From contig MGOY01000006.1 in NCBI GenBank assembly GCA_001797275.1, positions 4,744 to 68,743 of the forward strand: a stretch of 64,000 bases of DNA, written 5' to 3'. Position 1 is the first letter of the stretch, and each line of letters opens with the position of its first letter. Shown here in pieces: positions 31,296 to 64,000 of the stretch. This DNA is from Clostridiales bacterium GWF2_38_85 (GTDB taxonomy: Bacteria > Bacillota > Clostridia > Oscillospirales > CAG-382). The notes under the pieces were generated by a model that searched no databases, was not told where the DNA came from, and saw nothing but the letters and a program-made list of their open reading frames with translations. The translations under genes were made by a program, and so were the position numbers.

Positions 31296-32705
31296 TTACT
31301 GAGCGTTATTAGCATCAGTTTGAACTTCTGCGGATTCACTCGGTACATCACTTATTTTTTTACCGAGGATATCAGGAAGCTGCATTCCTGCAAGTGAGAA
31401 TACTTCGCCGAGCGGAGGGACAGACTTCATAAGGTTAGATATGAAATTAGCTGTTGAGCTTGTTCCATCTTTACCCGAATTGCCGCCATCCCAAACAGTG
31501 ATCTTATCGATCTTAATATTCTTGATAGCGTCAACCTGTACACGCATAAGTTCTTCAAGTTTATCACCGATCATAAGCATAATAGCATCCTTGGGGTCTC
31601 CACCGGCAGACTTAACCATTTCAGAAAAACCGGCAGCTTGTTTCTTAAGTATTTCCTGCATACCTCTTGCTTCTGCTTCCATCTTAGCAAAGATAGCATC
31701 AGCATCGCCTCTTGCTTTACGGCGAACCTGCTCAGCTTCCGCTTCTGCTTGTAATTCCATCTGGCGTTTTTTAATTTCTGCCTGAACGATGACATCAGCT
31801 TCAAGGGTAGCTTTTTCTCTTGCAAAACGCGCCTGCTCTGCTGTTTGTTCTGCAGCGTATGATTCTTCGAGTGCTTTCGCAGACTGAATTTTTTCTGCTG
31901 TTATTGCAATTTTCAAAGCTTCAGCTTCTTTTTCACGAAGCATAGCGTTTGACAACGCGATATTTCTTTTTGCTTCATTTTCTCCCTGTATTGCTGTAGA
32001 GTTGGCTTTCGCAACCTGGATACGTTGATCCATATAAGCATTAGCCTGACCGATTGAACCATCGCGTTCTTTCTCAGCAACGCTTTTTTTTGCATCGTTG
32101 ATAGCCTTTGCTGCTGCTTCTTTACCAAGTGCTTCAATATAACCCGATTCATCACTGATATCAGTTACATTTACATTGATAAGTCTTAAGCCGATTTTTT
32201 TAAGTTCGGTTTCAACATTACGACTTACCGATTCAAGGAATTTGTCACGGTCTGTGTTAATCTCTTCGATATCCATCGTAGCGATGATAAGACGAAGCTG
32301 ACCGAAGATAATATCCTTTGCAAGCTCCTGAACCTCGCTAAGCTTCAAGCCGAGAAGTCTTTCAGCTGCGTTTTGCATTATGCCGGGTTCGGTTGAAATA
32401 CCAACTGTAAAGCGGGAAGGTACATCAATTCTGATGTTCTGTCTTGAAAGTGCACTTTTCAAATCAACCGATATCGACAAGGGTGTCAAATCCATAAATT
32501 CATATCCCTGAAATACCGGCCAGATAAATGTTGCACCGCCGTGAATACAACGAGCGCTTTTCGCAGTACCGTCTTTGTTGTGACTTACTCTACCATAGAT
32601 AACCATGATCTTGTCTGAAGGGCATTTCTTGTATCTGCCCAGAATGGTTAGAAGAAGCATAAATGCTACAAGGGCAAGGACTACAATTAAAATTAAATCT
32701 TCCAT
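31296..32705 (-). CDS. flotillin / SPFH (band 7) family protein
   Basis: N-terminal TM, SPFH domain, then a long Ala/Glu-rich coiled-coil (AEQARFAREKATLEADVIVQAEIKKRQMELQAEAEAEQ), typical of FloT/YuaG-type flotillins. Confidence 0.85.
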   Translation of the reverse strand: MEDLILIVVLALVAFMLLLTILGRYKKCPSDKIMVIYGRVSHNKDGTAKSARCIHGGATFIWPVFQGYEFMDLTPLSISVDLKSALSRQNIRIDVPSRFTVGISTEPGIMQNAAERLLGLKLSEVQELAKDIIFGQLRLIIATMDIEEINTDRDKFLESVSRNVETELKKIGLRLINVNVTDISDESGYIEALGKEAAAKAINDAKKSVAEKERDGSIGQANAYMDQRIQVAKANSTAIQGENEAKRNIALSNAMLREKEAEALKIAITAEKIQSAKALEESYAAEQTAEQARFAREKATLEADVIVQAEIKKRQMELQAEAEAEQVRRKARGDADAIFAKMEAEARGMQEILKKQAAGFSEMVKSAGGDPKDAIMLMIGDKLEELMRVQVDAIKNIKIDKITVWDGGNSGKDGTSSTANFISNLMKSVPPLGEVFSLAGMQLPDILGKKISDVPSESAEVQTDANNAQ

Positions 32706-32878
32706 AATATCCTCCTATTTTTTATATTAAGCTTTTGCTTAATTACTCATTTAAAATGTTTAAAATAATAATCTTAAACCCGCATTATTTAATCCTGCTT
32801 CAATTCCTGATTTTGTACTGTCGATAAATTCACTTGCATTATAATCAGGCTAGTAAAAATCTGTCTTGGTAAAAATCA

Positions 32879-33221
32879 AACGAAGCTCTTCGATTATAAT
32901 ATTTTTTGCAATTTCGTGAATCTCATCCACTTTTAAACCAAGCAATCTTTCAGCTGCATTTTGCATAACACCCGGTTCAGTTGAAATACCAGCAGAATAG
33001 ACTTCCGGTAATCCTAAATCCAAATCATTAATTAAGAATTTTTTTCATAATCAATCGATATTTGTATAGGTGAAAGATCAAGAAATTCATATGCCTGCAC
33101 AAATGGAATTATAAATGCTGCGCCGCCATGAATACAAACTGTATTTTTCTTTGTGCCATCCTTACTTTGACCTACCATGCCATATATAACCATGACTTTG
33201 TCTGAAGGGCATTTTTTATAC
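32879..33221 (-). pseudogene. degenerate remnant of a second flotillin gene (5' region), truncated at the left end of repeat element copy A
   Basis: About 75% nt identity to 32270-32650 of the intact flotillin gene (...cagctgcattttgcataacacccggttcagttgaaatacc...); translation has stops and lacks the first ~25 codons. Confidence 0.75.
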
Positions 33222-33328
33222 CTATATTAAACTAATAAATGAATTACCTTAGCGATTTTGAAAAAGCCTTTTCTGTACGGCTTTTTCAAAATCAATAATA
33301 TCCTGATTCATTTGTTAGTTTAATATAG
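33222..33328 (+). mobile_element. MITE-like nested inverted-repeat element, copy A
   Basis: CTATATTAAACTAATAAATGAAT...AAAAAGCCttttctgtacGGCTTTTT...ATTCATTTGTTAGTTTAATATAG; terminal ~23-bp inverted repeats plus a central hairpin. Confidence 0.7.
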
Positions 33329-33398: not shown

Positions 33399-34055
33399 TT
33401 ATCCTTCATTTCTTTTCTTTGCAAGCTCTTCATATAGGCTGGCCTTTTCATTGATCCTTTTCTTAGCACCAATAGCGGAACCTTTTTTTCTTGCAAAGTA
33501 CATTACTGTGTTCCAAATAAACATAATAAGCATCATGCACAACGGTATCAACCAAAAAGCGAAGGCTTTGATATATGAACCATAAATACTGTCTTCAATG
33601 AATACTTCCTCCAACGGAGTCTTGACATCAACAAACCCAAAGATATATGAAACTATATACGCAAGCGGATTAACAATATATGGCATCGCTCCCCTGTTCA
33701 AGAATGACATAAACCAGATTATCAGTATAGCGGCACTTACAATTATCTGCTCGGTAATCAGTGCGGATTTCTTAACTTCCGCCCTGAACATATATGCTCT
33801 TTTCTCTTCGATTAACCTGGAAGCAAAGAATAATATCACCCCTGTAACCAGAAGTTGAATGACAAGGTAAATCGGATAGTATTCCGTATAATACTGTATA
33901 TAGCCATTTTTCAACTCTAAAATACTATGCGGAATCAAGGCTCCTATGACCATTGAAATCAAATTACCTACCGTATCAACAAGATATAGTATAATTAAAT
34001 ATGCAGCAACAAACTTGAAGTCGACACCTAATCGCTTTGTGTTTTCGGAATCCAT
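33399..34055 (-). CDS. polytopic membrane protein, unknown function, carried between repeat copies A and B
   Basis: Probable start MDSENTKRLG (RBS-like aaaggat upstream); the longer track ORF begins inside the repeat's inverted repeat. Confidence 0.45.
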   Translation of the reverse strand: MDSENTKRLGVDFKFVAAYLIILYLVDTVGNLISMVIGALIPHSILELKNGYIQYYTEYYPIYLVIQLLVTGVILFFASRLIEEKRAYMFRAEVKKSALITEQIIVSAAILIIWFMSFLNRGAMPYIVNPLAYIVSYIFGFVDVKTPLEEVFIEDSIYGSYIKAFAFWLIPLCMMLIMFIWNTVMYFARKKGSAIGAKKRINEKASLYEELAKKRNEG

Positions 34056-34074
34056 ATAAAATCCTTTCTTTAAT

Positions 34075-34182
34075 CTATATGAAACTATCAAATGTATTAC
34101 CTTGGCAATTTTAAAAAAGCCTACACTGCATGGCTTTTTTAAAATTAATAATATCTCAATTCATTTGTTAGTTTAATATATA
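34075..34182 (+). mobile_element. MITE-like nested inverted-repeat element, copy B
   Basis: CTATATGAAACTATCAAATGTAT...AAAAAAGCCtacactgcatGGCTTTTTT...ATTCATTTGTTAGTTTAATATAT; same architecture as A, with loop changes that preserve the stem. Confidence 0.7.
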
Positions 34183-34194
34183 TTCAGCAAAATA

Positions 34195-34839
34195 TTATTT
34201 TCTCTTAACAACAAGCGTATTGTTGCCAGAAAGACCGATAACAACCACCTCTTCGCCATATTTGATCGGTGTTTCTTCGTCTGTTACAGCATCGATTTCC
34301 ATATAAGCACCCTGAAGTAAAGTGTTGATTTTACCTTTATCACTTCTTGCCGGAGGAATTGTGATATATACGGTTGCCGACAGACCGAGTGCGTTCTTGT
34401 AATCAACACTGCCGTCGCTTTGTAGCTTCATCATCCATTTGAAGATGAATGCTATAACAAATAATGCAATGGCACCTGCAACAATCGCACCAAATACTGA
34501 AAGAGCTACACCACCATTGTTTCTGGATATCATAATTCCGGTCCAGCCGAAAATCGAGAAGAATGCAATAATTCCTCTGAGTGTGAACAAATGAAGCCCG
34601 GGGTCTGATGCTGCATCAAAGTGACCATCATGAACGCCACTGCCATCTTGTGAACCATCAAATCCGTCATGACCGGATGCATCGAAATCTGAACCATCTT
34701 GTCCGACATCAGCATCACTGTGACCGCTTATTCCGATAGCAGTAAGTATAACCTGAACCAACAACAATACTGTTGAAGGGACTGCAATGTATGCGAAGAT
34801 ACGTTCAAGCTGTGTGAGGGATTCCCACCATTCAAACAT
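34195..34839 (-). CDS. NfeD-family membrane protein (flotillin partner)
   Basis: N-terminal TM, His/Asp-rich segment, TM helices, and a C-terminal OB-fold-like beta-rich tail; sits upstream of the flotillin gene as in nfeD-floT operons. Confidence 0.55.
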   Translation of the reverse strand: MFEWWESLTQLERIFAYIAVPSTVLLLVQVILTAIGISGHSDADVGQDGSDFDASGHDGFDGSQDGSGVHDGHFDAASDPGLHLFTLRGIIAFFSIFGWTGIMISRNNGGVALSVFGAIVAGAIALFVIAFIFKWMMKLQSDGSVDYKNALGLSATVYITIPPARSDKGKINTLLQGAYMEIDAVTDEETPIKYGEEVVVIGLSGNNTLVVKRK

Positions 34840-50861: not shown

Positions 50862-51078
50862 CCTATGTCATTTTTCGTAGAGCGCCTTGCTCATTTTCAT
50901 CCTTATTCCTCCACATCCACCGTCACGCCGGACTTAAATTCCACGGTGAATTTGTCCGCGGCAACCGAAGTTGCCGTGTAGACGGTGACTTTTTCAATCA
51001 GCCACCGGACAAGCGGCTCGTCATATTCCGTGATGGTGGTGAGCTGTTCTCGCAGAAAAGTGCCCATATCGGCTATGC
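50862..51078 (-). pseudogene. remnant 3' end of a large serine recombinase gene (copy R1) plus downstream att-like flank
   Basis: Minus-strand translation ...IADMGTFLREQLTTITEYDEPLVRWLIEKVTVYTATSVAADKFTVEFKSGVTVDVEE*; this resembles the C-terminal tail (DUF4368-like) of large serine recombinases; homologous blocks at 53740-54075 and 57565-57770. Confidence 0.6.
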
Positions 51079-51650
51079 TGCTTTATGTTTATATGCCCTC
51101 ATCGCAAAGATATAAGCCACAAGCATAATTCCGACGCACCACGCAAGAGCAACCCAAATATCATTTCCGACAGGTTGCCCAGACAGGAGCGCGCGGATGG
51201 CGTCCACTATCGAAGTAACCGGCTGATTTTCAGCAAAAGCGCGGACAGCCGACGGCATCGAATCGGTAGGCACAAACGCCGAACTGATAAACGGAAGAAA
51301 GATAAGCGGGTAGGAAAAGGCACATGCCCCCACAGCGCGGCCGAACGCGCAATCGGCATGGAGTGGAATCGTTCGAAGATACCGCTTTGCATATCCATAA
51401 ACAGACGGTAAGCTGTGTAGGATATGCCGCTTGCAATTGCAATCAGTAGGATGCCGGGCAGCAGGTAATTCACATAGTTGTCCGTTCCGGTTTTGATTGC
51501 GCCGCCGAGCACATAAACGAACAGCAGCATCATCGCGATAGGCGTGATGGTGACCGTGATGATGGTGTCCAGGCTGCGGAAAATATGGCGCATGGAACGT
51601 CCGAGCATCACGCCCATATCGCTGAAAAAATGTTTCTTAGTCGTTTCCAT
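51073..51650 (-). pseudogene. ABC-2 type transporter permease, frameshifted (two overlapping ORFs)
   Basis: N-terminal part 51207-51650 and C-terminal part 51073-51333 overlap in different frames; either an authentic frameshift or a sequencing error. Confidence 0.6.
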
Positions 51651-53739: not shown

Positions 53740-54075
53740 AAAGCACCCTATGCTAAAATTTTCATAGAGTTCCTCGTTTATTTTCAGGCTTATTCATGTA
53801 CATCCACCGTTACGCCGGACCTGAATTCTACGGTGAATTTGTCCGCGGCAACAAAGTTGCCGTGTAGACGGTTACTTTTTCAATCAGCCGCCGGACAAGC
53901 GGCTCGTCGTATTCGGTGATGGCGGTTGACTGCTCCTACAGGAATGCGCTCATATCGGCTATCCGTTTGCGTAATTCATCCCGCCCGGCACTTTCCAGCT
54001 GAAGCTTCTGCTTTTCTTCACGCAGGTGGTAAATTTCCTCGGCGACATTCTTGAATATTGACTTGCTTCCGAGAA
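53740..54075 (-). pseudogene. remnant 3' end of a large serine recombinase gene (copy R2) with an in-frame stop
   Basis: Minus-strand translation ...EEIYHLREEKQKLQLESAGRDELRKRIADMSAFL*EQSTAITEYDEPLVRRLIEKVTVYTA...; nt homology to R1 and R3. Confidence 0.6.
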
Positions 54076-57488: not shown

Positions 57489-57564
57489 ATAAATTTCTGA
57501 TGTTTCAAACTCCATATAGTAAAGGCAACCTACGCCCAAAATCGTAGAGTACCATACTCGCTTT

Positions 57565-57770
57565 TTATGTATTATGCTTCCACATCCACCGTTACGCCGG
57601 ACTTGAATTCCACGGTGAACCTGTCCTCAAAAACCGTAACCTTTTCAAACAACCGCCGGAACAAACTGCCCCCACTATCAAGTGGGGGTATATTTGTTGA
57701 TTGCGGCGGGCTGCTCTTGCAGGAATGCGCTCATATAGGAAATCCGTTTTTGCAACATTATTGATTGATT
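57565..57770 (-). pseudogene. remnant 3' end of a large serine recombinase gene (copy R3)
   Basis: nt homology to R1 and R2 (ccacatccaccgttacgccggacttgaattccacggtgaa...); the tail translates ...VDVEA*. Confidence 0.55.
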
Positions 57771-57929: not shown

Positions 57930-58178
57930 GTGTATTTAGATAAATTTATATTGCCCATAGAGGAAGAATCCTCATTGATAGAACAACAAGCTGAACGTAA
58001 TGGTGGTGAATTCGGATATATCGACAATACTTACCCCTGCGGCATTTTCTCAAAAAAACGGTTTCCCGAGTTTAGTTTTTCAAAAATTACTATTCTATAT
58101 GGAGGAAACGGCTCGGGTAAAAGCACACTTCTGAATCTCATAGCTAATAAGCTGGAACTATATAAAACTAATAAATGA
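57930..58178 (+). pseudogene. truncated AAA/ABC-type ATPase gene (N-terminal 82 aa only), ending inside repeat element copy C
   Basis: P-loop ILYGGNGSGKSTLLNLIA; the ORF terminates at TAA supplied by the element's terminal repeat. Confidence 0.6.
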
Positions 58179-58263
58179 ATTACCTTAGCAATTTAAAAGA
58201 AGCCTATACTTTTTGGCTTTTTTAAATTAATAAAATCACAACTCATTTGTTAGTTTAATATAG
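58158..58263 (+). mobile_element. MITE-like nested inverted-repeat element, copy C
   Basis: CTATATAAAACTAATAAATGAAT...AAAAGAAGCCtatactttttGGCTTTTTT...CATTTGTTAGTTTAATATAG. Confidence 0.7.
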
Positions 58264-58426
58264 ATACTAATCCAGTCGACATAAAGCAATGGTGGGAATT
58301 GGAAAACACAAAAGTGTACTTTGATTTTTTTAATAAGCATAAAAGGCTGTTTCTCGACGAAAAAATAAGCTATAAATAAAGTAACTGCTGGTATTGTCAT
58401 ATGATATCTATTTTTTATAGGGAGCA

Positions 58427-58936
58427 TTGATCATGAAAATCATTGAGACTGAAAGGTTGTATCTGAGGGAACTTCGAATTGATGACAAGAAGGAATTAAT
58501 GAAGGTCTTATCCGATCCTGAATCCATGCAATTCTATCCACATCCGTTCACTGAGGAAGAGGTTGAAAAGTGGATTCAATGGAATATTGAAAATTATAAA
58601 AAATATAAACACGGATTATGGGCAGTAATACTAAAAGAAAGTGATATATTTGTTGGAGATTGTGGTATAACCATGCAAAACATCAGCGATAAAACCGTAC
58701 CTGAAATTGGCTTTCATATTATTAAGAAATATTGCAACATGGGTTTTGCATCTGAAGCAGCTCTTGCGTGTAAAGAATACGCTTTAAAGGTTTTACAATA
58801 TCCTGAAGTATTTTCGTATGCTACCTTAAATAATATTTCTTCGCAAAAAGTCGCAGAGAAGATTGGTATGCGGTTTTATGAATATTTTGAAAAGAATGGT
58901 GAGAAGCAAATTATCCAAGTAGCAAGTAAGGATTAA
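58427..58936 (+). CDS. GNAT-family N-acetyltransferase (RimJ/RimL-like)
   Basis: 169 aa; ...GFHIIKKYCNMGFASEAALACKEYAL... GNAT core. Confidence 0.65.
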   Translation: MIMKIIETERLYLRELRIDDKKELMKVLSDPESMQFYPHPFTEEEVEKWIQWNIENYKKYKHGLWAVILKESDIFVGDCGITMQNISDKTVPEIGFHIIKKYCNMGFASEAALACKEYALKVLQYPEVFSYATLNNISSQKVAEKIGMRFYEYFEKNGEKQIIQVASKD

Positions 58937-59355: not shown

Positions 59356-61254
59356 ATGATTATTAAGTATGATCAGATCTTAAAAGATCGAATGAGTAAA
59401 GAAAGCTATTCTAAACTTATAGCTTTAAAGAATGAAAAAGTCGTAGAATTTGTTGGATCATTTATCGAACATTGTGATCCTGCATCTGTCTATGTCTGCA
59501 ATGACAGCGAAAATGATATCCAGTATGTTCGTGACCAGGCTCTGGCTAAAGGCGAAGAGCAATATCTTGCAAATTCAAAGCAAACTATCCACTGGGATGG
59601 TTACGGTGATCAGGGGCGTGATAAAAACGGCACTCGTTTTCTTGTTTATAAAGAAAACATGGAAAAGATGAAAACTCTCAACGCTATTGAATACGAAGAA
59701 GGCTGCAAAGAAATAATGGAGATTTCACGCGGCATTATGCGCGGTAAAGATGCCATTGTACAGTTCTTTGCAGAAGGTCCCACAGAAAGCCCGTTTACCA
59801 TCCCATGTGTTCAGTTCACCGACAGTTGGTATGTTGCTCACTCTGAGTTCATTCTGTACCGCTCAGCATACAACCATTTTCTTAAAATGAAGGATTCCGA
59901 AAAAGACGATTTCTTCCGTTTCATTCATTCCGCTGGAGAACTCGATGAAAATAACAACACCAAAAACCTCGACAAACGCAGAATTTATATGGACACTCAG
60001 AATAACATTGTTTACTCCATGAATGCGCAGTATGCAGGTAACTCTGTCGGTCTCAAAAAGCACTCGATGCGTCTTGCAATCAGCAAGTCAGGCAAAGAAG
60101 GCTGGCTTTGCGAGCATATGTTTGTTATGGCCGCTCTTGATAAAGAAAAGAATCGTAAAACATATTTCTGTGGTGCTTATCCGTCAGCCTGCGGCAAAAC
60201 ATCAACAGCAATGATTCCCGGAGAAAAAATTGTCGGTGATGATATTGCTTATTTCCGTAATATCAACGGCGAATTCCGTGCCGTTAATGTTGAGTTCGGT
60301 ATGTTCGGTATTATTCAGGATGTCAATGCTAAAGATGATCCTGTAATTTTTGATAACTTGATGATGAATCAAGAAGTTATCTTCTCAAATGTTCTTAAAG
60401 GTCCCGATGCTAAACCCTACTGGCTAGGTATGGGCGTTGATGCTCCCAAAGAAGGCCGTAACCATTTCGGCGAATGGTATGAAGGCGTTCAGGATGCAAA
60501 AGGTAAAACAGTACCTCTCGCACACGGTAATGCACGCTACACTATGCGTCTTGATTACCTCGACAATATTGATAAAGAAGGCTTTGAATCCAAAAACGGC
60601 GTAGCGGTTGAAGGTATTCTTTATGGTGGTCGTGACAGCGACACAACAGTTCCGGTTGAAGAATCACCCAACTGGAAGGACGGTATCCTTCTCAAGGCAG
60701 CTACCCTCGAATCGGAAACAACCAGCGCTACTTTAGGCGCTGAGGGCGTTCGTACACCCAGCCCGATGGCTAATATGGACTTCGTTTCATATCCGCTTGG
60801 CGAATATACAATGAACAATATCAAGTTTGGCGAAAATGTTAAGAAGACCCCAAAAATTTTCAGCAATAATTATTTCATGCGCGATGAAAATGGCAAATTT
60901 ATGACCAGCAAGCTCGCGAAAAAAATCTGGCTGCACTGGGCAGACGGTCGTATTCATGATGAGTATGATGCTTATGACACACCGACCGGTAAGATTCCTA
61001 AATATGAGGATTTGGCAAAACTGTTTAAAAAATATCTTAACGAAGATTTCACCGAATCTGTCTATACCACATTGTTTACTTTCCGCTGCACAAAATGGAT
61101 TGAAAAACTGGAAAGAGCAAAGACATATTATACAAAGATGGATTCAAACATACCTCAAGAAATTTTCGATTACTGGAATACTGTCATTGAACGAATTAAA
61201 TCATCCAAAGAAAAATATGGCGATCTGATTAAACCCGGCGAATACAAAGGCTAA
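59356..61254 (+). CDS. pckG: phosphoenolpyruvate carboxykinase (GTP)
   Basis: 632 aa; kinase-1a motif YPSACGKTS and overall GTP-PEPCK pattern. Confidence 0.8.
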   Translation: MIIKYDQILKDRMSKESYSKLIALKNEKVVEFVGSFIEHCDPASVYVCNDSENDIQYVRDQALAKGEEQYLANSKQTIHWDGYGDQGRDKNGTRFLVYKENMEKMKTLNAIEYEEGCKEIMEISRGIMRGKDAIVQFFAEGPTESPFTIPCVQFTDSWYVAHSEFILYRSAYNHFLKMKDSEKDDFFRFIHSAGELDENNNTKNLDKRRIYMDTQNNIVYSMNAQYAGNSVGLKKHSMRLAISKSGKEGWLCEHMFVMAALDKEKNRKTYFCGAYPSACGKTSTAMIPGEKIVGDDIAYFRNINGEFRAVNVEFGMFGIIQDVNAKDDPVIFDNLMMNQEVIFSNVLKGPDAKPYWLGMGVDAPKEGRNHFGEWYEGVQDAKGKTVPLAHGNARYTMRLDYLDNIDKEGFESKNGVAVEGILYGGRDSDTTVPVEESPNWKDGILLKAATLESETTSATLGAEGVRTPSPMANMDFVSYPLGEYTMNNIKFGENVKKTPKIFSNNYFMRDENGKFMTSKLAKKIWLHWADGRIHDEYDAYDTPTGKIPKYEDLAKLFKKYLNEDFTESVYTTLFTFRCTKWIEKLERAKTYYTKMDSNIPQEIFDYWNTVIERIKSSKEKYGDLIKPGEYKG

Positions 61255-61276
61255 TTTCTATATCATTCACACGAAA

Positions 61277-61330
61277 AAAACTGCTGTCAGTCATATATAT
61301 GACTGACAGCAGTTTACTGATTTTTTATAA
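61277..61330 (+). terminator. rho-independent terminator
   Basis: AAACTGCTGTCAGTCATATATATGACTGACAGCAGTTTactgattttttat. Confidence 0.7.
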
Positions 61331-61381
61331 ACACACGATAAGACGGAAAAAAAGAAAACTAAATCTTATCCTTCTGTAGGA

Positions 61382-62397
61382 GTGATTCTTTTGAATACTA
61401 TAACATTGGGCAAAACAGAAATTATCGTAAATAAAAACGGTTTCGGAGCACTGCCAATCCAGAGGATCAACAAAAATGAAGCTCGTACTTTATTAAGGAA
61501 AGCATATGACAACGGCATAAACTTTTTTGATACCGCAAGATTCTATACAGACAGCGAAGAAAAAATAGGTTATGCCTTAAACGATGTCAGAGATAAAATC
61601 TGCATAGCATCTAAAACAATGACTACCAAGGTCATCGAATTTTGGGAACAATTGAACACATCCCTTCGCTTATTGAAAACTGATTATCTGGATATATATC
61701 AATTCCACAATCCTGCCTTTTGACCCACACCCGGGGACGGCGCCGGACTTTACGAAGGATGCTCGAAGCCAAAGCAAAGGGTATGATCCGTCACATCGGA
61801 ATCACAAACCACCGCCTTAAGGTTGCAACAGATGCAGCTGAATCCGGCTTATATGAGACAATACAGTTTCCCTTCAGCTACTTAGCAACAGTCAAAGAAA
61901 TAGAGCTTGTCAAACTCTGCAAAAAGAATGATATCGGATTTATAGCAATGAAAGCATTATCCGGCGGTCTGATAACAAATTTCACGGCTACTTACGCCTA
62001 TCTTGCGCAATATGATAATGTACTGCCCATCTGGGGAATTCAACGGAAATCCGAGCTTGACGAATTTTTATCATATGACGATAATCCGCCAGCACTGAAC
62101 GAGGAGTTAACTTCAATTATTGAGCAGGACAGAAATGCTTTGAGTGAGGATTTCTGCCGTGGTTGCGGGTATTGTATGCCCTGCCCGGTTGGTATTGAGA
62201 TACCCACAGCTGCAAGAATGTCACTGATGCTTAAGCGTGCGCCACTGTCTGTGTGCCTGAGTGATGAGTGGAAAGCAAAGATGGAGAAGGTAAATAACTG
62301 TATTCATTGCAATCAATGCAAAGATCACTGCCCATATGGTCTTGATACACCTAAGCTTCTCAAAAAGAACTGGGAAGATTACAAGAGATACATGTAA
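61382..62397 (+). pseudogene. aldo/keto reductase fused to a C-terminal 4Fe-4S ferredoxin-like domain; disrupted by an in-frame TGA and a frameshift at about 61711-61770
   Basis: AKR N-terminus (FGALPIQR..., DTARFY...); after ...QFHNPAF* the sequence continues in frame 1 as PTPGDGAGLYEG, then another frame gives MLEAKAKGMIRHIGITNH...; C-terminal CRGCGYCMPCPVG and CIHCNQCKDHCP. Confidence 0.55.
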
Positions 62398-62417
62398 GAT
62401 TAAGAAAGGAACCCTAT

Positions 62418-62741
62418 ATGAACTACCAATATGAAACAAATAAAATATATGCAGATGATGATAAAGGTGAGCTGATGGCGGAAGCTGCTTTCAATAATGT
62501 CAGCGATGGCGTTATTGACATAACCCACATTTATGTCAGTTCTGTGCTCCGAGGACAAGGTGTTGCCGGGCAGCTTATGGAGCTTATGGTTGAATATATG
62601 AGAAAAAATAAGCTCAAATCCAAAGCTTCCTGTTCATATGCAAACTCCTGGTTGCAAAAGAACAAGGAGGCCTATGCTGATGTAATCGCTGACGGAATAG
62701 ACGACCAGCCTATAGCCTGCAAAATAGACGGGAAACATTAA
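62418..62741 (+). CDS. small GNAT-like (YjdJ-type) acetyltransferase-domain protein
   Basis: 107 aa; ...RGQGVAGQLMELMVEYMRKN... Confidence 0.5.
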   Translation: MNYQYETNKIYADDDKGELMAEAAFNNVSDGVIDITHIYVSSVLRGQGVAGQLMELMVEYMRKNKLKSKASCSYANSWLQKNKEAYADVIADGIDDQPIACKIDGKH

Positions 62742-62781
62742 GTGTACCAACAAATAAAGCGTAAAGGAGTATGCTGTAACT

Positions 62782-63557
62782 ATGATGAACCTTGTCCTAT
62801 TTTTAGTTGTATTCGGCGTGTTATGGCTCTTAATTGAAATTCTGTCAATTCTATTGAAGATAACCGGACTTGAGTTAAGTAACAAATCATCTCTATTTTA
62901 ACTCATACTGGCTTTACTACCCGGGAGCCTGAGCTTATTGTTCAGCATTCAACCAGACGCCGTATCGCTATATTAAACTAACAAATTAATTGTGATTTTA
63001 TTAATTTGAAAAAAGCTAAAAAGTATAGGCATTTTTCAAATTGCTGTAGTAATTCATTTATTAGTTTTATATAGTATGCTTATGATTTAAGCTACATAGC
63101 ACGGGTATCGTTAATCACCCTGCTATTCGATATGCTCAATGACGAGCAGCAAAACCTTTTAAGCATTCTGATAATTCTCTCGGTTGTGCTTGTTTTTATT
63201 ATTATCGTTACTAAAAACAAATACATTCTGGATCGATTTGAAAGGCTCGCTGAAAAAATACTGTCAAAAAGCATCAGCAAGAATAAAGGCAGTCGGATTG
63301 ACCGGATTCTTAATCTAAATTCTAATTTCAGTATATATGAAGTTGTCGTTGACAACGATAGCCCTATGTGTAAAAAAACATTAAGAGAAAATCGGCTGAG
63401 GGACAACTTTATTCAAGTATTGAAGATAGATCGTGGTTCTGAAATAATAGATTTCCCGACAGCAGATACCATCATCCTGCACGGAGACCGCTTGATTGTA
63501 TACGGAAAAATAAAATCAATATCAAAACTGGTTATGAAACAGGAAGAGAAAAAATAA
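62782..63557 (+). pseudogene. TrkA-C (RCK_C) domain membrane protein gene, interrupted by a frameshift near 62880 and by insertion of repeat element copy D
   Basis: N-terminal TM FLVVFGVLWLLIEILSILLKITGL; shifted frame reads TGFTTREPELIVQHSTRRRIAIL and runs into the element; the frame resumes after it as ...SLITLLFDMLNDEQQ... into the TrkA-C domain (track ORF 63132-63557). Confidence 0.6.
62968..63074 (-). mobile_element. MITE-like nested inverted-repeat element, copy D (inverted relative to A-C)
   Basis: CTATATTAAACTAACAAATTAATtgtgattttattaatttgAAAAAAGCtaaaaagtatagGCATTTTTcaaattgctgtagtaATTCATTTATTAGTTTTATATAG; inner arms are the reverse complement of copy C's inner arms. Confidence 0.65.
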
Positions 63558-63857
63558 TAATGTAACAGAGATTCCATACAACCCCGAAAAATATCTTGCC
63601 GAGACAGATCCGAAAATGAAAAGATATTATGTATGCCATTGTCCGTTCGCCAGAGAAGCAATACTGAGGGGCGAACTTTAAGGATATCAGGAAACTGGTG
63701 TTATTGCAGCGCAGGCTTTGTCAAGCATCCGTATGAGGTCATTTTTTAATTTAATAAGAAACTAAAAGTCGATATGCTGCAGTCAGTTCTCAAATGTAAT
63801 CCTGTCTGCAGGTTTGCGATATATTTAGATTAAAACTCGGTTGAAAGGACCCATATA

Positions 63858-64000
63858 ATGAGAATACCGAAAAGGCTTAAAAAAGAAAACGACAAGCTTG
63901 AATGGAGAAAAGTAGTCGGGTTATTTGTCCTACTCACTCTGATTACATCAATTATTTATGTTATTGTAATGATGATTATTTCACCTTCTGCTGACTCTGC
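63858..64000 (+). CDS. 5' end of a membrane protein gene continuing beyond the window
   Basis: ATG with RBS-like aaagga upstream; MRIPKRLKKENDKLEWRKVVGLFVLLTLITSIIYVIVMMII... (TM helix). Confidence 0.35.
   Translation, partial: MRIPKRLKKENDKLEWRKVVGLFVLLTLITSIIYVIVMMIISPSADS

Follow-up and report, generated by a model that had tools for sequence, protein, structure and literature searches.

A MITE insertion at a TA target in a TrkA_C-domain pseudogene of an uncultured groundwater Clostridiales bacterium

We examined a window of 64,000 nt from Clostridiales bacterium GWF2_38_85 (contig MGOY01000006.1, positions 4,744 to 68,743 of the forward strand; positions below count from the start of this window). 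Toward its right end lie two ORFs on the same strand, about 230 nt apart. The first (62782-62901) encodes 39 aa, comprising a transmembrane (TM) helix and the sequence KITGL. The second (63132-63557) encodes 141 aa and is identical to A2Y17_05525, annotated as a "hypothetical protein" of this bacterium. A first-pass annotation, drawn from the sequence, had read these ORFs as parts of a single TrkA_C-domain membrane protein gene, separated by an inverted copy of a repeat element at about 62968-63074. That copy, here called D, is indeed the reverse complement of three others in the window, A (33222-33328), B (34075-34181) and C (58158-58263). Immediately upstream is a gene for an aldo/keto reductase with a C-terminal 4Fe-4S domain (61382-62397), split by an in-frame TGA at 61721-61723 (...HNPAF-stop-PTPGDG...) and by a 1-nt deletion near 61752. 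It is a second pseudogene, with no element involved, and its sequence is the same in an independent assembly.

For comparison with other proteins the reading frame was repaired by eye, giving a 223-aa query. Pfam TrkA_C (PF02080) matches the C-terminal part of the repaired protein with E = 4.7e-14. We found 161 homologues, nearly all of 199-241 aa (as are almost all of the 120 best matches) and most of 221-228 aa. Identity in the best of them reaches 73-74%; a near-identical intact allele is not present in the 5.8 billion clustered proteins searched, where the top match is 74% identical. Eleven full-length orthologues (221-232 aa) align to the lesion-repaired protein without interruption, at 58-75% identity. 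In this alignment the window gene matches TM helix 1, KITGLELS, ISILTHTGFTTRE.ELIVQH..RRRIA, the second hydrophobic stretch and the RCK_C domain, and the repaired protein carries the family motif KxTGL...ISILTHTGFTTRESELIVQHPxRRRIA together with the N-terminal and second TM helices. The product of an intact gene has two TM helices, a THTGFTT motif and a TrkA_C/RCK_C domain. The alignments confirm the two ORFs as the two ends of one gene of about 221 aa.

Alignment of the window gene at the DNA level with three orthologous loci from public assemblies (L001-L003; 69-75% identity) gave exactly three length differences: a 10-nt deletion, a 103-nt insertion and a 1-nt deletion. The first lies between 62882 and 62883, where the orthologues read AGCTAGATTT/ATCCAGATTT (KARF/KSRF), and costs the window gene its KARF; this is the frameshift previously suspected near 62880. 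Beyond it the present frame of segment 1 (Table 1) stops at TAA 62899-62901. Segment 2 covers a conserved re-entrant/pore-like motif region whose columns are invariant or nearly so in the orthologues. Its shifted frame (...QIISILTHTGFTTREPELIVQHSTRRRIA) enters the terminal repeat of the element, as the first-pass annotation had noticed, and reads ...RRRIAILN before a stop at 62979-62981. The 1-nt deletion, between 63087 and 63088 where the orthologues have a G, had been missed, as had the TA/CTAG target described below. The 13 nt after the element (GTATGCTTATGATT) ancestrally encoded (S)MLMI in a frame different from that of the downstream ORF; frame 2 of the excised reconstruction reads RRRIASMLMI and then a stop. 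Because the 1-nt deletion puts the downstream part in frame, the sequence looks open again from the end of the element. The earlier claim to that effect holds in that the frame is open from 63075, and fails in that the first 13 nt are not in the ancestral frame.

Judged by its sequence, the gene is an ordinary decaying pseudogene with three lesions. Sequencing error was rejected as the source of the frameshifts: one of them removes 10 nt, and the same sequence comes out of independent assemblies. The 10 nt absent at 62872-62883 read AGCTAGATTT in the two closest orthologues (L001 and L003) and contain CTAG, the preferred target of the element; as pure speculation, the deletion could conceivably be the scar of an earlier insertion followed by imprecise excision.

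Table 1. Positions of the pseudogene segments, of the element copies in the window and of the divergent-subfamily copies found in metagenome loci (the latter with locus names)
Feature	Position	Strand	Basis
Pseudogene segment 1: start codon, TM helix 1, KITGLELS(K), ancestral frame	62782..62882	+	ORF list, protein and DNA alignments
Pseudogene segment 2: QIISILTHTGFTTREPELIVQHSTRRRI(A), shifted frame	62883..62968	+	frame 2 of excised reconstruction
TA target-site duplication, left copy (target gC-TA-Gt, codons Ala63-Ser64)	62969..62970	.	excision and DNA alignment
MITE copy D, 101 nt	62971..63071	-	repeat finding, alignment, hairpin fold
TA target-site duplication, right copy	63072..63073	.	
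Pseudogene segment 3: (a)GT ATG CTT ATG ATT = (S)MLMI, ancestral frame, then 1-nt deletion	63074..63087	+	DNA alignment
Pseudogene segment 4: LSYIARVSLITLLFD..., TM helix 2, TrkA_C/RCK_C domain	63088..63557	+	Pfam, protein alignment
MITE copy A (with flanking TA)	33223..33327	+	repeat finding, alignment
MITE copy B (with flanking TA), between 230-aa membrane ORF and gene at 34195-34839	34076..34180	+	
MITE copy C (with flanking TA), at junction of internally deleted P-loop ATPase gene	58159..58262	+	
Divergent-subfamily copies	L084:3197-3301, L100:189-291, L138:10891-10995, L142:3763-3868, L143:5005-5109, L135:9084-9186		

The inserted DNA is exactly 103 nt, the 101-nt element plus one TA of the duplication. 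This 103-nt insertion is clean against all three orthologous loci. The 107-bp insert first proposed is longer by the outer bases: counted with the target C and G, copy D occupies 62968-63074, 107 nt. With 62971-63073 (or, equivalently, 62969-63071) excised, the sequence reads cgt atc gct agt atg ctt atg att and encodes RIASMLMI, which continues the frame of the upstream QIISILTHTGFTT...RRR and agrees with the orthologues (RRRIASMLMI in P0005, RRKIASMLMI in P0010). Only TA is duplicated across the insert; further out, the two flanks differ. None of the 11 aligned orthologues has a gap or an insertion at this point, giving an empty site at both protein and DNA level that is known from orthologues at 69-75% identity, not from a sister strain. 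From the reading frame and the orthologue protein sequence we infer gCTAGt as the target of copy D; the three closest orthologues have GCCAGT, not GCTAGT, there.

Copy D, inverted relative to copies A-C, has terminal inverted repeats of 22 nt (the 62971-62990 region and 63052-63071) around a central A-run/GCC...GGC/T-run hairpin. It contains no transposase gene, its only ORF being one of 22 aa (63006-63074). It is identical to its subfamily consensus at 103 of 105 positions. The two private substitutions, which fall in the central stem and in a terminal repeat, weaken the fold from -30.4 to -19.9 kcal/mol. With its 101-nt length, terminal inverted repeats, TA duplication, empty site, dispersed copies and lack of a transposase gene, the element is a MITE.

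Eight matches to the 23-nt terminal repeat are present in the window at up to three mismatches (four elements with two ends each), against none expected from shuffles, and the inverted repeats are 22-23 nt long with 0-3 mismatches in all eight ends. Scanning metagenome contigs with the terminal repeat yielded at least 49 copies in at least 41 loci of one metagenome, Ga0209417, whose contigs reach 337 kb and whose GC content is 37.4% (38.1% for the window). The flanks of these copies are unrelated, with no flank match longer than 150 nt. Most copies listed are 103-106 nt including both TAs; there are also short variants of 71-78 nt (L034:1965-2036, L103:3849-3919, L138:1647-1724) and a divergent subfamily that keeps the terminal repeats around a different core, again an A-run/stem/T-run hairpin. 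Outside metagenomes, a 20-nt terminal-repeat pattern run against 185,579 species-representative genomes (a collection that lacks the source MAG) gave 30 single matches in unrelated taxa, none extending beyond 20-23 nt, which we dismissed as chance. A scan of viral contigs gave seven single matches resembling these, and blastn of the subfamily consensus against a plasmid collection found no match.

Among the matches listed, 46 copies have flanks. TA is found at the start of 44 and at the end of 42, the exceptions being diverged copies. The base just outside TA, at the 92 ends of these listed copies, is C in 52 (57%, against a C background of 13%), T in 23 (25%), A in 13 and G in 4. There is a strong target preference for CTAG/YTAR, which is why the element had at first been seen as "CTATAT...ATATAG". 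The neighbours of the 46 listed copies are 44 gene starts and 28 gene ends, and not one of the 46 lies inside an ORF of at least 110 aa; genic insertions are therefore the exception, surviving only in decayed genes. As a second test of the TA duplication, we sought other copies whose excision restores a long ORF and found none that was convincing, the copies being intergenic. The subfamily of copy D has at least 10 members, each 0-2 private substitutions from the consensus; this star-like pattern indicates a recent burst, with young copies.

Folded over its full length, the element makes a long hairpin, with z scores of -9.8 (subfamily consensus) and -13.1 (copy A). The terminal repeats form the outer helix and hardly vary. 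The inner helix, which joins alignment columns 32-42 to 68-78, shows compensatory double changes across subfamilies at 6 of its 11 pairs, with 98% of cells paired overall. These counts stand for a few subfamily-level events and not for many independent ones; the covariation score was reached by none of 500 shuffles, and slid controls scored far lower. The core hairpin (A-run, GCC, 10-nt loop, GGC, T-run, with three G-C pairs) looks like a terminator to the eye. A terminator function is not supported, since a simple terminator scan fails in copies A-D and there is no excess of copies downstream of genes. A scan of the whole window with Rfam at gathering thresholds returned no family. A larger proposal, which we think unlikely, is that the element is more than a selfish MITE. 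On this view the compensatory changes at 6 of 11 pairs, together with a divergent subfamily of the same architecture, would mean that the hairpin itself is under selection, for instance as a mobile transcriptional insulator, an RNA-processing site or a DNA hairpin required for transposition; the family might also actively drive deletions and gene loss in this lineage, which the positions of the window copies would fit.

Three of the four window copies sit at gene-remnant junctions: D at a simple insertion, C at an internal-deletion junction and A at a truncation junction. Around copy C (region 57930-58427), a P-loop (ABC/AAA_21-like) ATPase gene retains its first 77 residues (...GGNGSGKSTLLNLIANKLEL, ...NKLEL), joined through the element to the last 38 or so residues of the family (DTNPVDIKQWWELENTK...). 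Longer homologues of this ATPase carry extra sequence between the two segments, and most database matches are fragments. The junction suggests an element-associated internal deletion, or a possible recombination between two copies. The left terminus of copy A (33223) is the exact end of homology of a decayed flotillin (Band 7) paralogue (32766-33223), a 5'-truncated fragment that is 44-67% identical to the neighbouring intact flotillin at 31296-32705, whose residue 24 marks that end; since the homology ends at the terminus, copy A marks a gene-truncation junction. A 230-aa membrane ORF on the minus strand (33399-34091) is enclosed by copies A and B, which share one orientation and are separated by 853 nt. 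Its neighbours are the flotillin remnant on one side and the gene at 34195-34839 on the other. It looks like a possible MITE-flanked passenger segment; it has no Pfam or NCBIfam match and no second copy in the fetched loci.

Some features elsewhere in the window were also recorded. The segment 50000-58000 has 42-47% GC, compared with 30-40% for most of the window. Three diverged copies of a module of about 210 nt (50872-51082, 53759-53968, 57541-57749; 67-85% identity) resemble a gene end plus a gene start on the minus strand, the third lying in a stretch without long ORFs. This segment may be an acquired island with decayed paralogues.

We consider it very probable that the 101-nt MITE, which has no coding capacity, inserted by cut-and-paste transposition into the TA of CTAG at codons Ala63/Ser64, duplicating the TA, and that it was most probably mobilised in trans by an IS630/Tc1-mariner DDE transposase recognising the terminal repeats. 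Transposases of this group excise by double-strand breaks. The insertion shifts the frame by +1, and translation meets a stop four codons inside the element, so that the protein is cut off behind the conserved RRRIA; the insertion alone is sufficient to truncate it after residue ~63, ahead of TM2 and the RCK_C domain. An order in which the insertion came first and the 10-nt and 1-nt deletions followed as later decay would be compatible with the young star-like subfamily and with the two private substitutions of copy D. Scaled to the 666-nt gene, a divergence of 2 in 105 nt would mean a dozen or so neutral substitutions, with one or two indels, after the insertion, so that the deletions could be later decay.

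The first-pass annotation had gone further, taking the locus as its clearest evidence that the element moves and inactivates genes. Movement is borne out by the at least 49 other sites with unrelated flanks. The inactivating role is less secure, given two further frameshifts in the gene and the lack of listed copies in ORFs of 110 aa or more. The gene may instead have been a pseudogene already, through the 10-nt deletion, the 1-nt deletion or both, with the element landing later in dead DNA and marking rather than causing the loss. To this order of events we give a considerable chance, somewhat short of even; the local context fits it as well as it fits an insertion that came first. Three independent lesions speak for it, as do the adjoining aldo/keto-reductase pseudogene, which carries no element, and the presence of copies A and C in gene remnants as well; the absence of all 46 listed copies from ORFs of that length is expected if only neutral insertions persist. 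On the other side, nothing dates the deletions, and the divergence that copy D has already built up would make two small deletions after the insertion unremarkable.

That an IS630/Tc1-mariner enzyme mobilised the element is suggested by the combination of a 2-bp TA duplication and a CTAG preference, the signature of that group. Both were observed here, the duplication at copy D and C outside TA at 52 of 92 ends among the matches listed. Elements of the IS630 family insert at TA with a 2-bp duplication (PMC2170065), and IS630 is described as favouring the TA in 5'-CTAG-3' (Tenzen & Ohtsubo 1991, cited in PMC2170065). An autonomous partner, sought as a pair of terminal repeats at IS-like spacing (400-4000 nt) enclosing a transposase, was not found in the window and some 311 kb of Ga0209417 loci (among the matches listed). 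The three best-spaced pairs (L108, L019 and L109) were rejected, as they contain unrelated ORFs and not transposases. A solo terminal repeat in L087 was rejected as a partner end too: it is the end of a broken oxidoreductase gene. The gene (L087:7075-7896, Ga0209417) is pyridine-nucleotide-disulfide oxidoreductase-like and split into two ORFs, with the solo repeat at its 3' end; it is possibly another gene remnant beside an element end. All-against-all BLAST of the window and the Ga0209417 loci listed, about 375 kb, revealed no IS-sized repeat, and a regular-expression search for the IS630-type DDE motif YSPxLNPIE, run on all six frames of every sequence fetched, found none.

Short duplications that contain TA also arise at YTAR with some subgroups of the IS5 family. 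The assignment to the IS630 family is therefore not exclusive, and mobilisation by a transposase outside IS630/Tc1-mariner, whether of such an IS5 subgroup (with its YTAR target and short duplication) or another enzyme, as for Correia, is conceivable; we judge it rather unlikely. The bases outside TA, C in 57% and T in 25%, do make the target YTAR-like, similar to that of IS5-type elements, and the fetched sequence holds no IS630-type transposase or motif. Those negatives, however, cover only about 375 kb of the host genome, and the duplication at copy D is exactly 2 nt, TA, rather than CTAG or a repeat of 3-4 nt. A 2-nt TA duplication is the defining feature of IS630/Tc1-mariner integration (PMC2170065).

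The sequence comes from a metagenome-assembled genome, and a repeat-induced chimeric join or a collapsed repeat might imitate such an interruption. A separate megahit assembly of run SRR1658473 (L152, a 77.9-kb contig) agrees with the window at 100% identity from 60132 to 64000, all three lesions included. From a second run, SRR6487860, a Logan assembly gave a contig (L153) whose first base lies within the element, at 63047, and which matches the window at 100% identity from that point, so that L152 alone spans the whole insertion. A contig break inside the element is the expected behaviour of a dispersed repeat in short-read assembly. The two gene halves are moreover collinear and share order and strand with an intact gene, and removing exactly the element and one TA restores the orthologous reading frame. 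Misassembly is unlikely because two independent assemblies reproduce the sequence wherever they cover it, and we regard an artefact as very improbable. Neither of the refuting conditions named in the first-pass annotation was borne out: the assemblies, over the stretches they cover, gave no sign of misassembly, and the alignment to orthologues gave 11 proteins with no natural linker and an empty site. Intragenic, translated MITEs do exist in other bacteria (PMC2759123, PMC2229807), yet a functional gene in which these 107 nt serve as a natural linker of this lineage, or as an in-frame repeat that is tolerated, is scarcely credible, since the insertion of 103 nt is not a multiple of 3, a stop follows four codons in (62979-62981), none of the 11 orthologues has a gap or insertion here and the gene has two additional frameshifts.

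Among the known systems closest in architecture, the level at which we compared them, is RUP, a 107-bp TA-targeting MITE of S. pneumoniae attributed to IS630-Spn1 for the same reasons (PMC2229807): the size class (101-105 against 107 bp), the lack of coding sequence, the terminal inverted repeats and the TA target with its duplication are shared. RUP also resembles the present family in its Firmicutes host, its roughly 100 copies per genome, mostly intergenic, its near-identical copies suggesting recent mobility, and its occurrence in pseudogenes and other repeats (PMC2229807, PMC10969869). The window MITE differs from it in having longer terminal repeats (22 nt, against 9 contiguous bp listed for RUP) and a CTAG preference, and in that RUP has a candidate partner, IS630-Spn1, while none was found here.

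The Correia/NEMIS elements of Neisseria are likewise MITEs (100-155 bp) with terminal repeats of ~24-26 bp and a TA duplication, the whole element forming a long hairpin whose cognate transposase is not identified (PMC2229807, PMC3184786). They differ in belonging to another phylum and in that Correia carries IHF sites and promoters, whereas scans of copies A-D flagged neither a promoter-like nor a terminator-like site. The Correia/NEMIS sequence is not known to be related to that of the window MITE. IS630 of Shigella sonnei and ISY100 share integration at TA with a 2-bp duplication, and IS630 a CTAG preference (PMC2170065, with Tenzen & Ohtsubo 1991 for the latter); unlike the 101-nt non-coding element, they are autonomous, of 1.0-1.2 kb, and encode a DDE transposase. 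A small interspersed repeat with a hairpin core between A and T runs (PMC10969869, PMC3049150) is similar to the MITE core, which differs in its hairpin of three G-C pairs and a 10-nt loop that fails the simple terminator scan. The intrinsic-terminator features of SPRITE-like repeats were not found in copies A-D, and the copies listed adjoin 44 gene starts compared with 28 ends.

We regard the element as a new, previously undescribed MITE family from an uncultured groundwater Clostridiales lineage, TA-duplicating and of IS630-like kind; with RUP and Correia compared by architecture alone, we do not place it in either of those families. It is biologically ordinary and leaves knowledge of how such elements work unchanged. 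What the locus offers is a clean MITE hit in coding sequence, resolved to the base pair, in GWF2_38_85, an uncultured groundwater Clostridiales, and with it a new family of 101-nt elements with a TA duplication, a CTAG preference, at least 50 copies and a young subfamily. For annotation of this genome, the 141-aa "hypothetical protein" A2Y17_05525 is the tail of a pseudogene, and the family accounts for contig breaks in short-read assemblies of the bacterium. The terminal repeats (TATATAAAACTAATAAATGAAT-type) provide a handle for finding the transposase of the family.
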